Positions 13,114-37,974 of a stretch of 37,974 bases of DNA are shown here, piece after piece. The notes beneath the pieces were generated by a model. The model saw only the letters and a list, made by a program, of their open reading frames with translations. It was not told the DNA's origin and made no database searches. Where the stretch lies: the IMG/VR virus record IMGVR_UViG_2778261505_000008, positions 1-37,974 of that record, one strand, 5' to 3'. Within the stretch, counting starts at the first letter, position 1, and every line of letters starts with the position of its first letter. The stretch is from a virus (taxonomy: Duplodnaviria; Heunggongvirae; Uroviricota; Caudoviricetes). Both the position numbers and the translations under genes were made by a program.

Positions 13114-13701
13114 ATGAAAAAACTAACCTTTGAAATTCGATCTCCAGCACATCAGCAAAACGCTATTCACGCAGTACAGCAAATCCTTCCAGACCCAACC
13201 AAACCAATCAATCAAATAACTCAGCAGAGACTTAAAGAAGTCCTTCTCTACGATGAGTTAACAGGGAAATTCACATGGAAAGTAAAGAAATGCCAGAGAA
13301 TGAATGCTGGGGATATCGCAGGGCATAAGAGTAGCGAAGGCTACTGGGTAATAAAAGTCGATGGAAAACTTTATAAGGCACACAGGCTGGCGTGGCTCTA
13401 TATGAATGGCAGTCTACCAAAAAGTGATATCGACCACATAAATCTCGTTAGGGATGACAATCGTATAGCAAATCTTAGATTGGCAACTCGATCTCAAAAC
13501 ATCCAAAACGTAAACAAAAAGGCAAATAACAAATCAGGATATAAAGGCGTTTCATGGGATAAGAAATCAAGAAAATGGAGGGCGCAAATCGTAATCAACA
13601 AGAGGAAAGTTAATCTTGGGTTTTACGATGACCCAAAGGAAGCTCATAAAGTATATGCAAATAAAGCGGATGAATGTTTCGGCGAATTTGCGAGGTATTA
13701 A
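13114..13701 (+). CDS. HNH endonuclease with a NinB-like N-terminal segment fused in frame
   Basis: ATG at 13114 with GGAGAGGGAAG upstream. HNH/AP2-type core ...[35 protein letters not shown]...GYKGVSWDKKSRKWRAQI.... The first 32 aa MKKLTFEIRSPAHQQNAIHAVQQILPDPTKPI match my recollection of the lambda NinB N-terminus and are absent from the paralog at 36510-37010. Confidence 0.85.
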   Translation: MKKLTFEIRSPAHQQNAIHAVQQILPDPTKPINQITQQRLKEVLLYDELTGKFTWKVKKCQRMNAGDIAGHKSSEGYWVIKVDGKLYKAHRLAWLYMNGSLPKSDIDHINLVRDDNRIANLRLATRSQNIQNVNKKANNKSGYKGVSWDKKSRKWRAQIVINKRKVNLGFYDDPKEAHKVYANKADECFGEFARY

Positions 13702-13702
13702 A

Positions 13703-14131
13703 ATGAAATGTGTCAAATATCACCTTACTAATGAATCTATAAGATATAACGCCATTCAGTATCTTAGGACATGCGATTTAGACATCATTGTCGAGTTTAA
13801 GCAGCGCAACCGCAGCTTAGACCAGAATCGAAAGCTTTGGGCCTGCTTAGGTGACGTCTCTCGTCAGGTTGAATGGCATGGTCGCTGGCTGGATGCAGAA
13901 AGCTGGAAGTGTGTGTTTACCGCAGCATTAAAGCAGCAGGATGTTGTTCCTAACCTTGCCGGGAATGGCTTTGTAGTAATAGGCCAGTCAACCAGCAGGA
14001 TGCGTGTAAACGAATTTGCGGAGCTATTAGAGCTTATACAGGCATTCGGTACAGAGCGTGGCGTTAAGTGGTCAGACGAAGCGAGACTGGCTCTGGAGTG
14101 GAAAGCGAGATGGGGAGATCGGGCTGCATGA
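13703..14131 (+). CDS. ninB: NinB (Orf-family recombination mediator) with a divergent N-terminus
   Basis: ATG at 13703 with GAGGT upstream, 1 nt after the HNH stop. From ...KQRNRSLDQNRKLWACLGDVSRQVEWHGRWLDAESWKCVFTAALKQQDVVPNLAGNGFVVIGQSTSRM... to the end it matches remembered lambda NinB. The first 28 aa are a diverged version of the NinB N-terminus. Confidence 0.85.
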   Translation: MKCVKYHLTNESIRYNAIQYLRTCDLDIIVEFKQRNRSLDQNRKLWACLGDVSRQVEWHGRWLDAESWKCVFTAALKQQDVVPNLAGNGFVVIGQSTSRMRVNEFAELLELIQAFGTERGVKWSDEARLALEWKARWGDRAA

Positions 14132-17128: not shown

Positions 17129-17203
17129 GGGTCAGTCGTATAAAGGTCATTACGGAAGGCTGTTAACCTTCTTATCGTGGTTCGAGTCCACGCTGTCCCG
17201 CCA
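17129..17203 (+). tRNA. tRNA-Asn (anticodon GUU) candidate, 75 nt
   Basis: Hand fold: acceptor gggtcag/ctgtccc (one U-U mismatch), anticodon stem gaagg/ccttc with loop CUGUUAA, T-arm cgtgg-TTCGAGT-ccacg, discriminator G, encoded CCA. Confidence 0.6.
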
Positions 17204-17208
17204 AATAT

Positions 17209-17284
17209 GCTGGTTTAGCTCCAATGGTAGAGCAGTCGCCTTGTAAGCGAATGGGTAGCGGTTCAAGTCCGTTAACCAGCACCA
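17209..17284 (+). tRNA. tRNA-Thr (anticodon UGU) candidate, 76 nt
   Basis: Hand fold: perfect 7-bp acceptor gctggtt/aaccagc, D-arm gctc-caatggta-gagc, anticodon loop CUUGUAA, T-arm agcgg-TTCAAGT-ccgtt, discriminator A, encoded CCA. Confidence 0.7.
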
Positions 17285-19948: not shown

Positions 19949-20443
19949 ATGAATATGGTAGCACCAAAGGGCAACCGATTTTGGGAGGCCCGCAGTAGTC
20001 ATGGGCGAAATCCTAAATTCGAATCGCCTGAGGCGCTGTGGGCTGCTTGTTGTGAATACTTCGAGTGGGTAGAAGCTAACCCGCTATGGGAGATGAAGGC
20101 GTTCTCGTATCAGGGGGAAGTGATACAAGAGCCTATCGCCAAGATGCGAGCGATGACCATTACCGGCCTCACTCTGTTCATTGATGTGACGCTTGAAACA
20201 TGGCGCACATATCGCCTGAGAGAAGATTTATCTGAAGTCGTTACGCGAGCAGAACAGGTCATCTACGACCAAAAATTCTCTGGCGCAGCCGCTGACCTTC
20301 TCAACGCTAACATCATCGCCCGTGATTTGGGCCTCAAAGAGCAGTCGCAAGTTGAAGACGTGACACCTGATAAGGGAGATCGCGATAAGCGGCGCTCTCG
20401 TATCAAGGAGCTATTCAACCGTGGAACTGGACGCGATTCTTGA
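19949..20443 (+). CDS. Terminase small subunit
   Basis: ORF track 19949..20443 (+). Directly upstream of and overlapping the large-subunit gene. Basic C-terminus. Assignment by position and size. Confidence 0.7.
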
Positions 20444-21917
20444 TAACCTGAGCGACGAAGAGCAAATCGAATTGCTCGAGCTACTCGAAGAAGAAGAGAA
20501 CTACCGGAACACACACCTGCTATATGAATTTACGCCATACAGCAAACAGCGTGAGTTCATCGACGCCGGGCATGACTATCCAGAGCGATGTTTTATGGCT
20601 GGTAACCAGCTTGGCAAGTCATTTACTGGTGCTGCTGAAGTCGCGTTTCACCTTACCGGGCGTTATCCGGGAACAAAAGGCTATCCGGCTGATGGTAAAT
20701 ATGGCGGGGAGTGGAAAGGTAAGCGTTTCTATGAGCCTGTTGTCTTCTGGATTGGTGGCGAGACAAACGAGACTGTAACCAAAACGACTCAACGCATCCT
20801 GTGCGGTCGTATCGAAGAGAATGGTGAGCCAGGCTACGGTTCCATACCGAAAGAGGACATCATTAGCTGGAAGAAGTCTCCTTTCTTTCCGAATCTTGTT
20901 GATCACCTTCTGGTTAAGCATCACACGGCTGATGGCGTTGAAGATGGCATTTCAATCTGCTACTTCAAACCATACTCGCAAGGCCGTGCTCGCTGGCAGG
21001 GTGACACAATCCACGGCGTGTGGTTTGACGAAGAGCCACCATACAGCATTTATGGCGAAGGGCTTACCCGTACCAACAAATACGGGCAATTCTCAATCCT
21101 GACGTTTACCCCGCTGATGGGGATGTCTGACGTTGTTACCAAGTTCCTGAAGAATCCCAGCAAGTCGCAGAAAGTGGTCAACATGACCATCTATGACGCT
21201 GAGCACTACACCGACGAGCAGAAAGAGCAAATCATCGCATCCTATCCTGAGCATGAGAGAGAGGCGCGTGCTCGCGGTATTCCTACGATGGGTAGTGGTC
21301 GAATCTTCCAGATACCGGAAGAGACTATTAAGTGTCAGCCGTTCGAGTGTCCTGATCACTTCTACGTCATCAATGCAATGGACTTCGGATGGGATCACCC
21401 ACAGGCACATATCCAGCTTTGGTGGGATAAAGACGAGGACGTGATTTATCTCTCTCGCGTCTGGAAGGCCAAACAGAAGAAGGCGACAGAGGCATGGAGT
21501 GCTGTTAAAGCATGGAGCAAAAACACCCCTACGGCTTGGCCTCATGACGGGCATCAGCACGAAAAGGGAGGCGGCGCTCAGCTCAAGGAACAATACGCCG
21601 ACGCTGGGTTCGACATGTTGCCAGAGCATGCAACATGGCCTGATGGAGGTAATGCGGTCGAACCCGGGATAGCAGAGATACGCGACATGATGCTCGACGG
21701 TCGCTTCAAAGTATTCAACACCTGTGAGCCATTCTTTGAAGAGTTTCGCCTGTATCACCGCGATGAGAACGGGAAGATCGTCAAGCTAAATGACGACATC
21801 CTTTCTGCTGTTCGCTATGGCTACATGATGAGGCGTTTTGCAATACAGATGCGAGACATCAAAGATCCTAAAGAGATTGATTACTCAAGCTACAACATAC
21901 CTTGCGGAGTTGGATGA
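20421..21917 (+). CDS. Terminase large subunit
   Basis: ORF track 20421..21917 (+), GTG start. Walker A-like [11 protein letters not shown] in the N-terminal ATPase domain; C-terminal nuclease domain. Confidence 0.9.
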
Positions 21918-34525: not shown

Positions 34526-34883
34526 TGCTGTTTTTCTCCCTTAGATACCAGCTTAACACAACACCTGTGTTGTACTGCATAATGTATCCGCAATGCTTGC
34601 AAATTACATGATAAGAGTAATTTATTGGGTTGAATGATTCATCTTCGTTTTTTATATATTCACCATAATGGGCATGCCTACCCATGATGTCTTTTCCATT
34701 ATCCTGATTTACAAATTGAACTTGAGGGACAACCATTTCAGACTGCCCGCACATTGGGCATTCGTCTGGAACACCTTTAGCTCTCAAGAAAGAGTCGAGA
34801 ACCTTTGTAGTTATAGACGATAGCGCCTTGCGATATTCACCCTCTCGCAGTTGATCGTCTGAGTATCCTGAATTGTCACTCAT
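34518..34883 (-). CDS. Cassette gene A: zinc-ribbon protein (121 aa)
   Basis: ORF track 34518..34883 (-). Two CxxC pairs (ECPMCGQ and ICKHCGY). ATGA overlap with the mnt-like stop. No TM segment. Confidence 0.6.
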   Translation of the reverse strand: MSDNSGYSDDQLREGEYRKALSSITTKVLDSFLRAKGVPDECPMCGQSEMVVPQVQFVNQDNGKDIMGRHAHYGEYIKNEDESFNPINYSYHVICKHCGYIMQYNTGVVLSWYLREKNSNV

Positions 34884-35131
34884 TTTTCATCCTTACCATA
34901 CATGGTCTTTAGCGTCTCAACATCGCGTTCAAGATCTATCAATCGTGATGCTATAGTTGCAAGGTCTAGTGCTTGAATGTGTTTATTTTTTTCGGTCCAC
35001 GCTTCAAGTGCCGCGACCATCTCAGCATTTAATGAACGAGAATTAGCCTCAGCCAGTTCAATAAGACGTTCCTTTATCTCTACAGGAAGCCTCAGATTCA
35101 CTTGAGGGTTTTTGTACTTACGATCAGACAT
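34880..35131 (-). CDS. mnt: Mnt-like ribbon-helix-helix repressor (83 aa)
   Basis: ORF track 34880..35131 (-). ...VNLRLPVEIKERLIELAEANSRSLNAEMVAALEAW... parallels the remembered P22 Mnt RHH motif. Same length as Mnt, divergent from arc/ant. Confidence 0.8.
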   Translation of the reverse strand: MSDRKYKNPQVNLRLPVEIKERLIELAEANSRSLNAEMVAALEAWTEKNKHIQALDLATIASRLIDLERDVETLKTMYGKDEK

Positions 35132-35236
35132 CGGCGCATCCTGAATAATTTTTTACCACAGGATATGTAGGTATCTATTGACTATCAATGCGTACCTAAA
35201 TACTATGTATGCGTACCACATACAACGGAGGATGCA
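35132..35236. promoter_or_regulatory. Divergent promoter/operator region between mnt and arc-ant
   Basis: 105-bp AT-rich intergenic region with a direct repeat tgcgtacc (35189-35196 and 35210-35217) and several short imperfect dyads. Individual operators not resolved. Confidence 0.4.
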
Positions 35237-35377
35237 ATGAAGGTAAAAACACTGCGTATGCCAGAGAAGCTAGAAAAAATTCTTGAAGAAAAAGCAAAGG
35301 AAGAGTGTCGCTCATTCAGCGCAGAAGTAATTAAACGGGTGCTGGACAGCCTGAGGAGAGAGGGGATAACGGTGTGA
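35237..35377 (+). CDS. arc: Arc-like ribbon-helix-helix protein (46 aa)
   Basis: Not in the ORF track. ATG at 35237 with GGAGG 5 nt upstream, frame verified codon by codon to TGA at 35375-35377. MKVKTLRMPEKLEKILEEKAKEECRSFSAEVIKRVLDSLRREGITV. Confidence 0.6.
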   Translation: MKVKTLRMPEKLEKILEEKAKEECRSFSAEVIKRVLDSLRREGITV

Positions 35378-35475
35378 TTCGCTTGGATGCGGCAAAGAAA
35401 TCAAAACAGTGAAGCCCCAACTGCGGGAACAGTCAGGGCTTCGGTATCGTAAAACCACGCATAGGAATTAACGAC

Positions 35476-36399
35476 ATGAAAAGTATAGCAACAGCAGTAT
35501 CTACTATCAATGTACCATTCCACGGCGCAGAGCTTTATGTTGTCAATCACAACGGCGAACCGTATACCCCAATGAAACCTATCGTTGAGGGAATGGGGCT
35601 AGACTGGAAATCTCAACATAAGAAGATTTCTCAACGCTTCTCGAAGGGTATGGTGGAAATCACCATACCTTCTGCCGGTGGGGTGCAAGCCATGATTTGT
35701 ATGGCTTTACGAAAATTGGCAGCTTGGTTGAACAGCATCAGTCCTAACAAAGTCCGCCCTGAAATCCGCGACAAGGTAATCCAGTATCAGGAAGAGTGTG
35801 ACGATGTGCTCTACGAGTACTGGACTAAAGGCCATGTAGTTAACCCACGCAAAGCTAAAAAGGCGTTGCCGGGTAAAATCACCACTGAACAGCAGGAAGC
35901 CATTAAACAACTCGTCATGAGTCGCGGTCAGTCTCTGCCAAAAGAAAAACAGGCTAAGGCGATGATCACCATGTGGTCGTCACTGAAATCCCATTTTGGA
36001 TGTTCGTACAAAGAAATCAGTGAGGAGCAGTTTACCGAAGCACTATCACTTGCAGCTCGAGTTCCACTTGAAGGTGAGTTCATTGGCAAACAAGAGAAGA
36101 AAACAAACGAGCTTTCTGCAAAAGAAGCAAACAGCCTTGTATGGTTATGGGATTATGCCAACCGCTCACAGGCATTATTCCGCGAACTGTATCCGGCGCT
36201 AAAACAAATTCAATCGAACTATTCCGGCAGATGCTACGACTACGGTCATGAATTCTCGTATGTTATCGGAATGGCGAGAGACGTTTTAATAAACCACACA
36301 CGAGATGTTGATATCAATGAGCCAGATGGACCAACGAATCTTTCCGCATGGATGAGACTTAAGAATAAAGAATTACCTCCTTCAGTACATAACTACTGA
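35476..36399 (+). CDS. ant: Antirepressor Ant
   Basis: ORF track 35476..36399 (+). Size about 300 aa, position after arc, N-terminal antirepressor-like domain. Confidence 0.8.
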   Translation: MKSIATAVSTINVPFHGAELYVVNHNGEPYTPMKPIVEGMGLDWKSQHKKISQRFSKGMVEITIPSAGGVQAMICMALRKLAAWLNSISPNKVRPEIRDKVIQYQEECDDVLYEYWTKGHVVNPRKAKKALPGKITTEQQEAIKQLVMSRGQSLPKEKQAKAMITMWSSLKSHFGCSYKEISEEQFTEALSLAARVPLEGEFIGKQEKKTNELSAKEANSLVWLWDYANRSQALFRELYPALKQIQSNYSGRCYDYGHEFSYVIGMARDVLINHTRDVDINEPDGPTNLSAWMRLKNKELPPSVHNY

Positions 36400-36417
36400 C
36401 AGATAAACAATGCAACG

Positions 36418-36441
36418 ACCCAGCTTCGGCTGGGTTTTTTT
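36418..36441 (+). terminator. Rho-independent terminator after ant
   Basis: acccagc-ttcg-gctgggt (7-bp perfect stem, tetraloop) followed by 7 T. Confidence 0.7.
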
Positions 36442-36509
36442 ATGCCCAAAATTCACCGTAGCCATGCTGCGGCGATTCCTTGCATCTGGAGCAAATTAAA
36501 TGACAGACA

Positions 36510-37010
36510 TTACCTACTCAACAGATGGTCAGCAACCATGTTTGCTGCCTTATAAGCTATAGCCGCTTCATCAATGGTGTTGAATCTCCCAAGGGTTATG
36601 TTTTTACCTGAGACATTTATCTGAGCTTGCCATTGATTTCTGGCTTGACAGAAAGTTACCCCCTTGATTCCAGCATTGCTATTTCGAGGTCCGACATTTA
36701 ATGCATTTACGACTCTGCTGACATCCCTAAGGTTTGAGATTGCGTTATTTCTTCTGTTTCTATCAATGTGGTCAATCTCTTGTTTGGGCCATTCGCCATA
36801 TACATACAGCCAGGCAAGTCTATGTGCAAAATATCTTACGCCATCAATATTAATTGCGTTATATCCATAAGAAATTGTGCCAGCAACTTTCCCAACAGCA
36901 CCTCTGGCGCTTAATTTCTTTTTCCAAGTGAAAATTCCTGTTTCTTTATTGTAATCGAGAACCTCCATAAGGCGCTCCCGAGTTACTACCTCGTGACGTC
37001 TCTTACTCAT
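36510..37010 (-). CDS. HNH endonuclease, paralog of the ninB-associated one
   Basis: ORF track 36510..37052 (-), trimmed to the ATG at 37008-37010 with GGAG 6 nt upstream. ...TGIFTWKKK...[35 protein letters not shown]...[18 protein letters not shown]... is collinear with the 13114-13701 protein. AT-rich. Confidence 0.8.
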
Positions 37011-37032
37011 TATTTTCTCCGGAATGTTTATT

Positions 37033-37974
37033 ATGCCAGAACAATTATACAACGTAGTTGTTTCACAACCAAGTCAGTTATTTACTTTAGCTCGCTCGTT
37101 TAAAGCAAATGCCAATGGCAAAATTTATATCGGTAAAATTGACACTGACCCAGTAAATCCAGAAAACCAGATTCAGGTTTATGTAGAGAACGAAGATGGC
37201 TCTCACGTTCCTGTTTCGCAACCAATCATCATTAACGCTGCTGGATATCCGGTATATAACGGGCAGATTGCCAAGTTCGTTACTGTGCAAGGGCATTCTA
37301 TGGCTGTTTATGATGCATATGGAGCGCAGCAGTTTTATTTTCCGAATGTGCTGAAGTATGACCCGGATCAGTTAAGACAAGAGTTAGCAACAGAGGGTAA
37401 TGAAATACTTGTTGACGACTCCCGTATTGCAGTTAAAAGTGTTCATGTAAATTCAAAACTTAGAACCCAGCACAATAAAAACGCAGAAATAATCACGCCA
37501 AATGATTTTATATCAAATTATGACATGATATCTGCAGCTATTAACTCTGGAGATAGTGCCGCAGTATTTAATTCCAGGTATGCATTCACAATAACAGTTG
37601 GGGAATATGGTAATTTTAAATCTATTAGTGATGCTCTAAACTCGGCTGTTGCACTGCGTCCACTATGGAAAAATGGCATTGACTTTTGCATAATTAAAAT
37701 TCTTTCCGGTTTTGTGCTCAATGAGCAAATAGAAATTTCAGCAGGATGTGACTTATCATGGATTAAAATAATATCAGAAGACTCAGTGGTTTTCTCTGAC
37801 ACTCGTTTGTTTACTAAAACTGTTAGGACGTATTACGAATACAAATATTTATTTTACATTTGCGATGCAGCAAAAAGTCCTGTATTTGCTATTCAGATTG
37901 AAGAAAATAGAGATGATAGCGATGTTTGTGCATTTATTGTAACTCAAAAAGCTGAACTTAATTTCTATCCGTAT
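37033..37974 (+). CDS. Tailspike protein, 5' partial (314 codons, runs off the window end)
   Basis: Not in the ORF track because no stop lies within the window. ATG at 37033, open frame to 37974. N-terminus [97 protein letters not shown]... matches the conserved head-binding domain of P22/Sf6-group tailspikes. Later sequence diverges and is AT-rich. Confidence 0.85.

Follow-up and report, generated by a model that had tools for sequence, protein, structure and literature searches.

The 37,974-nucleotide stretch of DNA analysed here (the window; IMG/VR record IMGVR_UViG_2778261505_000008) is a P22-like (Lederbergvirus) genome, in which a predicted HNH endonuclease gene lies between ant and the tailspike gene, on the strand opposite to the latter. 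A first-pass annotation had put this gene at 36510-37052, wedged between the ant terminator and the tailspike start and 22 bp before the tailspike ATG. The open reading frame (ORF), its domains, the spacing and the terminator were all confirmed, but the insertion lies inside the ancestral tailspike ORF, after its nucleotide 14. Comparison by BLAST and MAFFT with the HNH-free phages CUS-3 (L002) and HZ41 (L003), identity to which extends up to 36513 and returns gradually past about 37081-37110, delimited a putative mobile cassette, in which a spacer of 22 bp separates the HNH gene from a surrogate tailspike 5' end. This cassette is designated HNH1, and the features of the locus are:

35476-36399: ant, identified by its P22_AR_N and P22_AR_C domains
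36417-36436, plus strand: intrinsic terminator of ant (hairpin and T-run), conserved in filled and empty loci
36488..36513, plus strand: remnant of the ancestral tailspike start, with a ribosome-binding site (RBS; GGAG, 36488-36491), an ATG at 36500 and the first 14 nucleotides of the ORF (ATGACAGACATTAC)
36510..37010, minus strand: predicted HNH-AP2 endonuclease gene, 166 amino acids, from Pfam, PHROG 99 and alignments with I-HmuI and plant AP2 proteins
36514..37110, no strand: putative mobile cassette, 597 bp in place of 64 bp (nucleotides 15-78 of the ancestral ORF), a net gain of 533 bp
37011..37032, no strand: divergent spacer of 22 bp, read from the sequence
37033..37110, plus strand: surrogate, recoded tailspike 5' end, with a new ATG and 26 codons
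37111..37340, plus strand: variable zone of apparent co-conversion, in which identity among HNH1 loci falls from about 97% to about 88%
37033..37974, plus strand: tailspike gene, continuing past the window end; residues 1-113 (37033-37371) are the Head_binding domain (Pfam E 1.2e-64, profile positions 1-113 of 113), and the receptor-binding part follows

In empty genomes, ...TCTGGAGCAAATTAAATGACAGACATTAC runs on into AGCCAATGTG..., which supplies the tailspike RBS, ATG and first codons (MTDITANV). In the window, the HNH gene separates the remnant RBS and ATGACAGACATTAC from the present tailspike start, which came with the insert; the ancestral start is that of the remnant, at 36500-36513. The stop codon of the HNH gene (TAA, 36510-36512) is contributed by the tailspike remnant. 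From the former tailspike ATG, with its RBS, a leftover ORF of 20 codons (36500-36562, plus strand) extends in antisense into the HNH 3' end; provided that this RBS remains functional, late transcripts would yield its product. The ant terminator lies upstream of the cassette, outside it.

Apart from the 22-bp spacer, the cassette is coding sequence throughout, and in this spacer the HNH gene has its RBS (GGAG, complement of 37017-37020); GGAA at 37021-37024, also in the spacer, is a weak candidate for the RBS of the new tailspike start. The 26 recoded codons specify a peptide nearly that of the empty allele from codon 7, with third positions that differ almost throughout, and every filled/empty pair has 35-39 mismatches in tailspike nucleotides 1-110. 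The carrier's tailspike evidently stays full length and has lost the ancestral sequence that surrounded the insertion point. The recoded 5' end is strictly linked to the HNH gene in IMG/VR (the same 20 of 20 contigs), and a search of IMG/VR for HNH-less alleles with the recoded 5' end, the resistant sites that would be left after nuclease loss, found none. The HNH gene had been called AT-rich; the cassette is lower in guanine plus cytosine than ant, by a modest margin (0.39-0.425 versus 0.455-0.48). An intron- or intein-encoded gene was considered and rejected: an Rfam scan of 34800-37974 detected no intron family at E<=1 (only the sar RNA and a sub-threshold RsmY match), and the HNH ORF is on the strand opposite to the tailspike.

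The HNH ORF was listed mechanically as 36510..37052 (minus strand, TTG start), but the ATG at 37010, which leaves 22 bp to the tailspike ATG at 37033, is the likely start and gives 166 amino acids, because GGAG stands 6 nucleotides upstream, similarity to a paralog at ninB begins at residue 9, and the same 501-nucleotide coding sequence is annotated in phage Kapi1 (L001). RefSeq records annotated by the Prokaryotic Genome Annotation Pipeline (PGAP; L004-L014) usually have the start at an internal methionine (152 amino acids, MEVLDYN...), and one of the RefSeq records shares the 166-residue start with Kapi1; the long form is favored because paralog conservation extends upstream of the short start. 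The protein matches PHROG 99 'HNH endonuclease' (E 7e-63) and, at residues 60-103, Pfam HNH_3 (59.7 bits versus a cut-off of 24.8, E 2e-16). Residues D80, H81, N93 and N102, which we take to have the catalytic and metal-binding roles of their counterparts in I-HmuI, are spaced as in that enzyme (1U3E; VDHKDGNKDNNLSTNLRWVTQKIN) and invariant in the ninB paralog. The protein has the D-H...N...N catalytic pattern of the I-HmuI type and is a predicted nuclease.

Several signals, individually weak but in agreement, point to a C-terminal domain of the AP2 type (residues 114-156, approximately): a Pfam AP2 match (E 3.6e-6, 27.6 bits, under the cut-off of 33.3), phmmer matches of the C-terminal part to the plant AP2 proteins WRI1 and TEM1, and an AlphaFold2 model from a two-sequence alignment, poor overall (predicted local distance difference test, pLDDT, 56), in which the AP2 part forms three strands and a helix (pLDDT 68-81). 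A Foldseek search of the PDB, useful for the AP2 part only, placed the TEM1 and WRI1 AP2 domains first (root-mean-square deviation 1.5 A over 38 columns, E 0.03). An intact ORF is present in 30 of 31 full copies, and its 24 variant sites comprise 18 synonymous and 6 non-synonymous ones (ratio of non-synonymous to synonymous polymorphism, pN/pS, about 0.09), by which the protein is evidently under purifying selection. Two decayed cassettes were seen: that of E. coli EC06 (L013) has a nonsense mutation (Y60*) in a prophage with broken terminase genes, and that of E. coli 30COLEC (L015) has lost both the HNH 3' end and the remnant, and adjoins an unrelated integrase island.

A terminase-associated HNH protein of the HK97 gp74 type was also rejected, the gene being situated between ant and the tailspike gene and its domain type being HNH_3 plus AP2. 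The ORFs presumed, by position and size only, to be terminase genes (about 19949-21917) are some 15 kb away. P22-like phages package their DNA by the headful.

Among 50,697 phage records, the cassette was found in that of Kapi1 only (100% identity, annotated 'HNH endonuclease'), and 2577 records hold homologs of the HNH-AP2 protein. Besides Kapi1, a distant blastn search against phages returned only a 71-nucleotide match to the HNH core in a Salmonella phage, and no donor of the recoded 5' end. The cassette is present in 15 of 5426 complete E. coli genomes, always at 99% identity or more and always adjoining a tailspike; DNA for a P22-like head-binding domain is present in about 1105 of the 5426, which corresponds to an occupancy of about 1.4%. 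IMG/VR contributed 20 further copies. Altogether, 33 HNH1 loci including the window, all with the same junction nucleotide, were compared with 217 empty sites. This survey of presence and absence, which the first-pass annotation had proposed, indicates that the HNH gene is a sporadic and not a fixed component of the junction; about 97% of the genomes with P22-like head-binding tailspike DNA have neither HNH1 nor a second cassette, HNH2, described below.

The backgrounds of the cassette are diverse. In 12 E. coli loci and the IMG/VR loci, one cassette is joined to tailspikes of at least 15 lengths (446-981 amino acids), and upstream of it are found ant, Arc/Mnt-type genes, an ejection-protein gene or an integrase island. 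Median pairwise identity among 23 distinct haplotypes (L014 left out) declines with distance from the HNH gene:

36514-37032: HNH part, 99.6%
37033-37110: recoded part, 98.7%
37111-37170: flank segment, 96.7%
37171-37262: flank segment, 93.5%
37263-37372: flank segment, 88.2%

Past about 37390 the tailspikes of carriers are unrelated, and on the left similarity is gone within about 27-60 nucleotides of the junction in several loci. Mean distances in the head-binding domain are 0.12-0.17 among carriers versus 0.11-0.15 among non-carriers (raw slices, which take in a few loci with insertions or deletions, such as L014 and L024), and the nearest neighbor of an HNH1 locus in this domain is usually an empty locus. 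The cassette is evidently rare and varies hardly at all, and it occurs in many backgrounds that are otherwise unrelated; active horizontal spread is supported by this population pattern.

Six near-isogenic pairs of filled and empty loci (L010/CUS-3, L010/L206, L012/L248, L031/L195, L019/L040 and L009/L068) differ essentially within tailspike nucleotides 1 to about 200, and past nucleotide 110-200 or so their tailspikes are 98.8-99.6% identical over up to 1.5 kb compared. E. coli 23CRST044 (L010), which has a K1 endosialidase tailspike, matches CUS-3 without mismatch over 319 nucleotides on the left, up to the cassette; on the right there are nine mismatches at 37149-37230 and then 99.6% identity over 1.5 kb. 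The tract of difference ends at about nucleotide 120-126 in L012/L248, about 198 in L010/CUS-3 and about 303 in the window compared with HZ41, to which the window is about 99% identical from 37336 to its end and from which it differs upstream of 37336. Co-conversion with variable tract ends is apparent on the right side only, and no left-side conversion was seen.

Taken together, these comparisons make it highly probable that the cassette is a free-standing HNH-AP2 homing endonuclease gene that spreads among P22-like prophages by intronless homing, and it very likely has its home at the 5' extremity of the tailspike gene in these phages. A phage or prophage bearing the cassette would meet a cassette-free relative, and the nuclease would use its AP2 domain to bind the conserved tailspike start and would cut or nick at, or a few nucleotides from, ORF position 14. 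The left 3' end of the recipient, intact up to the break, could then pair with the donor's remnant and prime copying of the cassette. The right end would be resected through about 64 nucleotides poorly matched in the donor, as far as the point past nucleotide 110 or so where homology returns; this would explain why co-conversion is one-sided. The splitting of the site, together with the recoding of the 5' end, would make the carrier immune to its own enzyme; at the level of sequence, its target is altered.

The first-pass annotation had also suggested that the endonuclease could promote tailspike swapping, that is, that breaks at the tailspike border promote exchange of receptor (host-range) modules and that the cassette both marks and drives this exchange. 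The identical cassette is indeed found with at least 15 tailspike lengths, nuclease genes have been reported at exchange boundaries in other phages (PMC10448857), and the window is itself a mosaic, with a Kapi1-like flank to 37151, an HZ41-like receptor domain from about 37336, and between them a stretch that matches neither. In every pair examined, however, the tract ends at about nucleotide 110-340, within the head-binding domain, and the receptor-binding domain remains that of the recipient lineage; the near identity of the isogenic pairs farther downstream shows that entry of the cassette left the receptor module unchanged. The breakpoint between head-binding and receptor parts (about 37340-37390), at a distance of 300 bp from the insertion, is present equally in the HNH-free phages CUS-3 and HZ41, and the head-binding genomes without either cassette are the great majority. 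Swapping of receptor domains by the cassette is not supported by these comparisons, and we regard it as improbable, although rare long tracts may occur.

The junction itself is informative. Two alleles of the remnant occur among the 33 HNH1 loci, ATGACAGACATTAC in 23 (including the window) and ATGTCAGATATCAC in 10, and the empty tailspike starts are likewise of two types, beginning ATGACAGACATTACAGCC... and ATGTCAGATATCACCGCA... Each remnant allele has its own upstream sequence and is the real tailspike start in 116 and 101 empty loci, respectively. The closest difference between the two alleles is 2 nucleotides from the junction. Because the recipient-specific allele is kept to within 2 nucleotides of the junction, we infer that ordinary homologous crossover does not account for the placement of the cassette, which fits a break at the junction with priming by the recipient's 3' end.

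Other insertions use the same nucleotide. HNH2, a different cassette, is also antisense and encodes 169 amino acids with HNH_3 and a weak AP2 match (42% identical to HNH1 over 92 residues); it likewise ends in AGG plus the stop codon of the remnant and replaces only about 21 nucleotides of the tailspike start. HNH2 (L118, and also L120, L124, L056, L066, L081 and L214) is found on both remnant alleles and in 15 of the 5426 E. coli genomes; cultured phage records lack it. A third insertion, HNH3 (L161), is visible for 154 nucleotides at the end of its locus, where an antisense ORF ends in ...HGEFACFR and the stop codon of the remnant; its 47-residue fragment has no Pfam match and is unclassified. 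With at least two to three different cassettes of nuclease type at one site (HNH2 being HNH-AP2 and HNH3 unclassified), the tailspike start might be a contested homing site, at which a prophage nuclease, possibly made in the lysogen, cleaves the tailspike gene of superinfecting relatives that lack the cassette; the gene would then be both selfish and a weapon of exclusion, and occasional long repair tracts would carry host-range modules. We consider this extension unlikely.

According to another explanation, the HNH gene is a passive accessory gene that is moved by homologous recombination between the RBS/start region and the head-binding domain and is kept for a benefit to the lysogen, such as damage to superinfecting relatives by the nuclease or regulation by an AP2-type DNA-binding protein, and not for catalysis of its own transfer. 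Strong purifying selection is equally expected of a useful gene, the gene is antisense to the late operon in the manner of the lysogen-expressed immI genes, it is probably detectable in RNA-seq of a Kapi1 lysogen (being absent from the list of undetected genes), and a module-exchange boundary sequence (bsq1) is annotated at the same spot in CUS-3. Yet the left homology is just 27 nucleotides or so in some loci, and the recipient's remnant allele is kept up to 2 nucleotides from the junction, as a break there can produce and a crossover cannot. Two to three different insertions at one nucleotide, destruction of the target sequence in carriers and a domain family of the classical homing type speak against it as well, so that a passive gene is very improbable. 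That the gene is an ancestral P22-like component, repeatedly lost rather than gained, can be practically dismissed: three diverged insertions with a common junction and final AGG codon do suggest old residence, but HNH1 copies are about 99.6% identical while the adjacent head-binding DNA differs by 5-17%, loss would need exact restoration of the non-recoded 5' end, and occupancy is about 1-3%.

Several points weigh against intronless homing as the explanation. Cleavage, its position and the strand cut are predicted from sequence, and since free-standing endonucleases of T4 often cut hundreds of bp from their own genes (PMC2988022), the cut here need not be at nucleotide 14. The AP2 match falls under the Pfam gathering score, and the structural model is poor. 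A consensus scan of 36300-37400 on both strands detected no sigma-70-like promoter for the HNH gene, and the sole hint of its expression comes from the lysogen RNA-seq study, whose list of undetected genes does not include Kapi1_066, the gene for the identical protein. Ordinary recombination at conserved module borders could in principle give the same distribution, and the junction and final AGG codon that all three insertions share may mean one ancient insertion and not several site-specific ones.

The window contains a second gene of the family:

13114..13701, plus strand: ninB-side HNH-AP2 fusion, in which NinB codons 1-32 are in frame with the endonuclease, by comparison with the empty site of Sf101

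This ORF, listed as 13096/13114-13701, has the same HNH_3 and AP2 domains (Pfam), and its product is 44% identical to the tailspike-side protein over 147 amino acids (E 1e-36), so that the claim of the first-pass annotation that the two belong to one family holds, with similarity far beyond the catalytic motif in the pairwise alignment that it had called for. Compared with Sf101 (L016), the ninB cassette (about 13210-13800) puts about 590 bp in place of 13 bp within ninB; the native ninB start is retained in the HNH fusion, and a new ATG (13703) followed by 33 diverged NinB codons restores ninB. It was found at 99% identity or more in 8 of the 5426 E. coli genomes and in none of the 50,697 phage records, and within the E. 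coli set these 8 genomes do not overlap with the 15 that carry the tailspike cassette. The two copies had been thought to represent one actively spreading element. Spread is upheld for the tailspike cassette, but the ninB copy is apparently an independent relative with the same design and a different target: since the two proteins are no closer to each other (44%) than the tailspike HNH protein is to HNH-AP2 proteins of T5-like, Klebsiella, Yersinia and Ralstonia phages (about 46-47%), and since the genome sets do not overlap, independent acquisitions are indicated. Inspection of the ninB and tailspike target sites by eye revealed no common motif.

The cassette appears to belong to a well-known class, the comparative evidence for its mobility is strong, and its anatomy is more than 'intergenic'. 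The free-standing Seg and Mob enzymes of T-even phages bring about co-conversion and marker exclusion (PMC2988022), and SegF, SegG and MobE, like the cassette, are instances of intronless homing in which the nuclease gene is in neither an intron nor an intein, with presence/absence polymorphism, co-conversion of flanks and protection of the carrier by sequence differences (PMC2988022). The T-even enzymes are of GIY-YIG or other HNH types, belong to lytic phages, are usually intergenic and co-oriented with their neighbors and often cut at a distance, whereas the cassette has HNH_3 plus AP2, resides in temperate P22-like prophages, and is antisense within the 5' end of its target ORF, from which it borrows its stop codon and for which it supplies a substitute start; its cleavage is deduced. 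MobE in nrdA of Aeromonas phage Aeh1 is likewise a homing gene within an essential coding region that remains functional, but nrdA of Aeh1 is split into two polypeptides, whereas the tailspike stays whole thanks to the replacement 5' end.

The arrangement of an N-terminal HNH and a C-terminal AP2 domain is shared with the HNH-AP2 family of phages, cyanobacteria and protists, including the 'IPA-HNH' relatives of ICP1 (PMC10448857), the genes of which are frequent beside or within essential and structural phage genes (PMC10448857). The HNH domains of the ICP1 proteins are too divergent for Pfam HNH_3, unlike that of the tailspike-side protein, which matches it directly. The sole solved HNH homing enzyme found by sequence is I-HmuI of Bacillus phage SPO1 (1U3E, E 0.07), which has the same D-H...N...N pattern, but the similarity is weak (about 70 residues), and the gene for I-HmuI resides in a group I intron, the enzyme itself having other DNA-binding modules and nicking its target. 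Gene 31 of the P22-like phage epsilon34 (PMC2629481), an in-frame fusion of the EaE N-terminus to HNH, resembles the cassette in that an HNH gene occupies the 5' end of a resident gene, and its layout is exactly that of the ninB copy in the window; it differs in its target gene and in its HNH lineage, related to enzymes of Lactobacillus phages, and the tailspike copy is antisense and unfused. The literature searched on Kapi1 or P22-like tailspikes with HNH genes or homing contains no description of the cassette or of the surrogate-start design, and the Kapi1 genome paper makes no mention of the endonuclease.

The locus may serve as a natural homing system of temperate enterobacterial phages that is compact and well sampled, with an identical cassette in the cultured phage Kapi1; since alleles with and without the cassette, both recipient alleles and competing cassettes at a single nucleotide are to hand, the cleavage site, one-sided co-conversion and competition between homing genes are directly testable. 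For annotation, the tailspike start and first 26 codons of carriers would be assigned to the mobile element and the HNH stop codon to the old tailspike start, and the HNH starts differ between PGAP and Kapi1. For host-range engineering, the cassette apparently moves without change of the receptor module.

Three observations concern other parts of the window. The sar antisense RNA of the P22 immI region (35408-35474, minus strand; Rfam RF00262, 76.6 bits) is located just upstream of the ant start region and overlaps it, as in P22. Two tRNA genes, Asn (GTT) and Thr (TGT), are found in the late-region leader (17129-17284, plus strand). The receptor part of the tailspike gene (37461-37974) matches a 'tail fiber protein' of Escherichia phage 92CQ, a phage of 130 kb, at 98.2% identity and the podovirus HZ41 at about 99%, and these matches indicate that this receptor module is common to very different types of phage.

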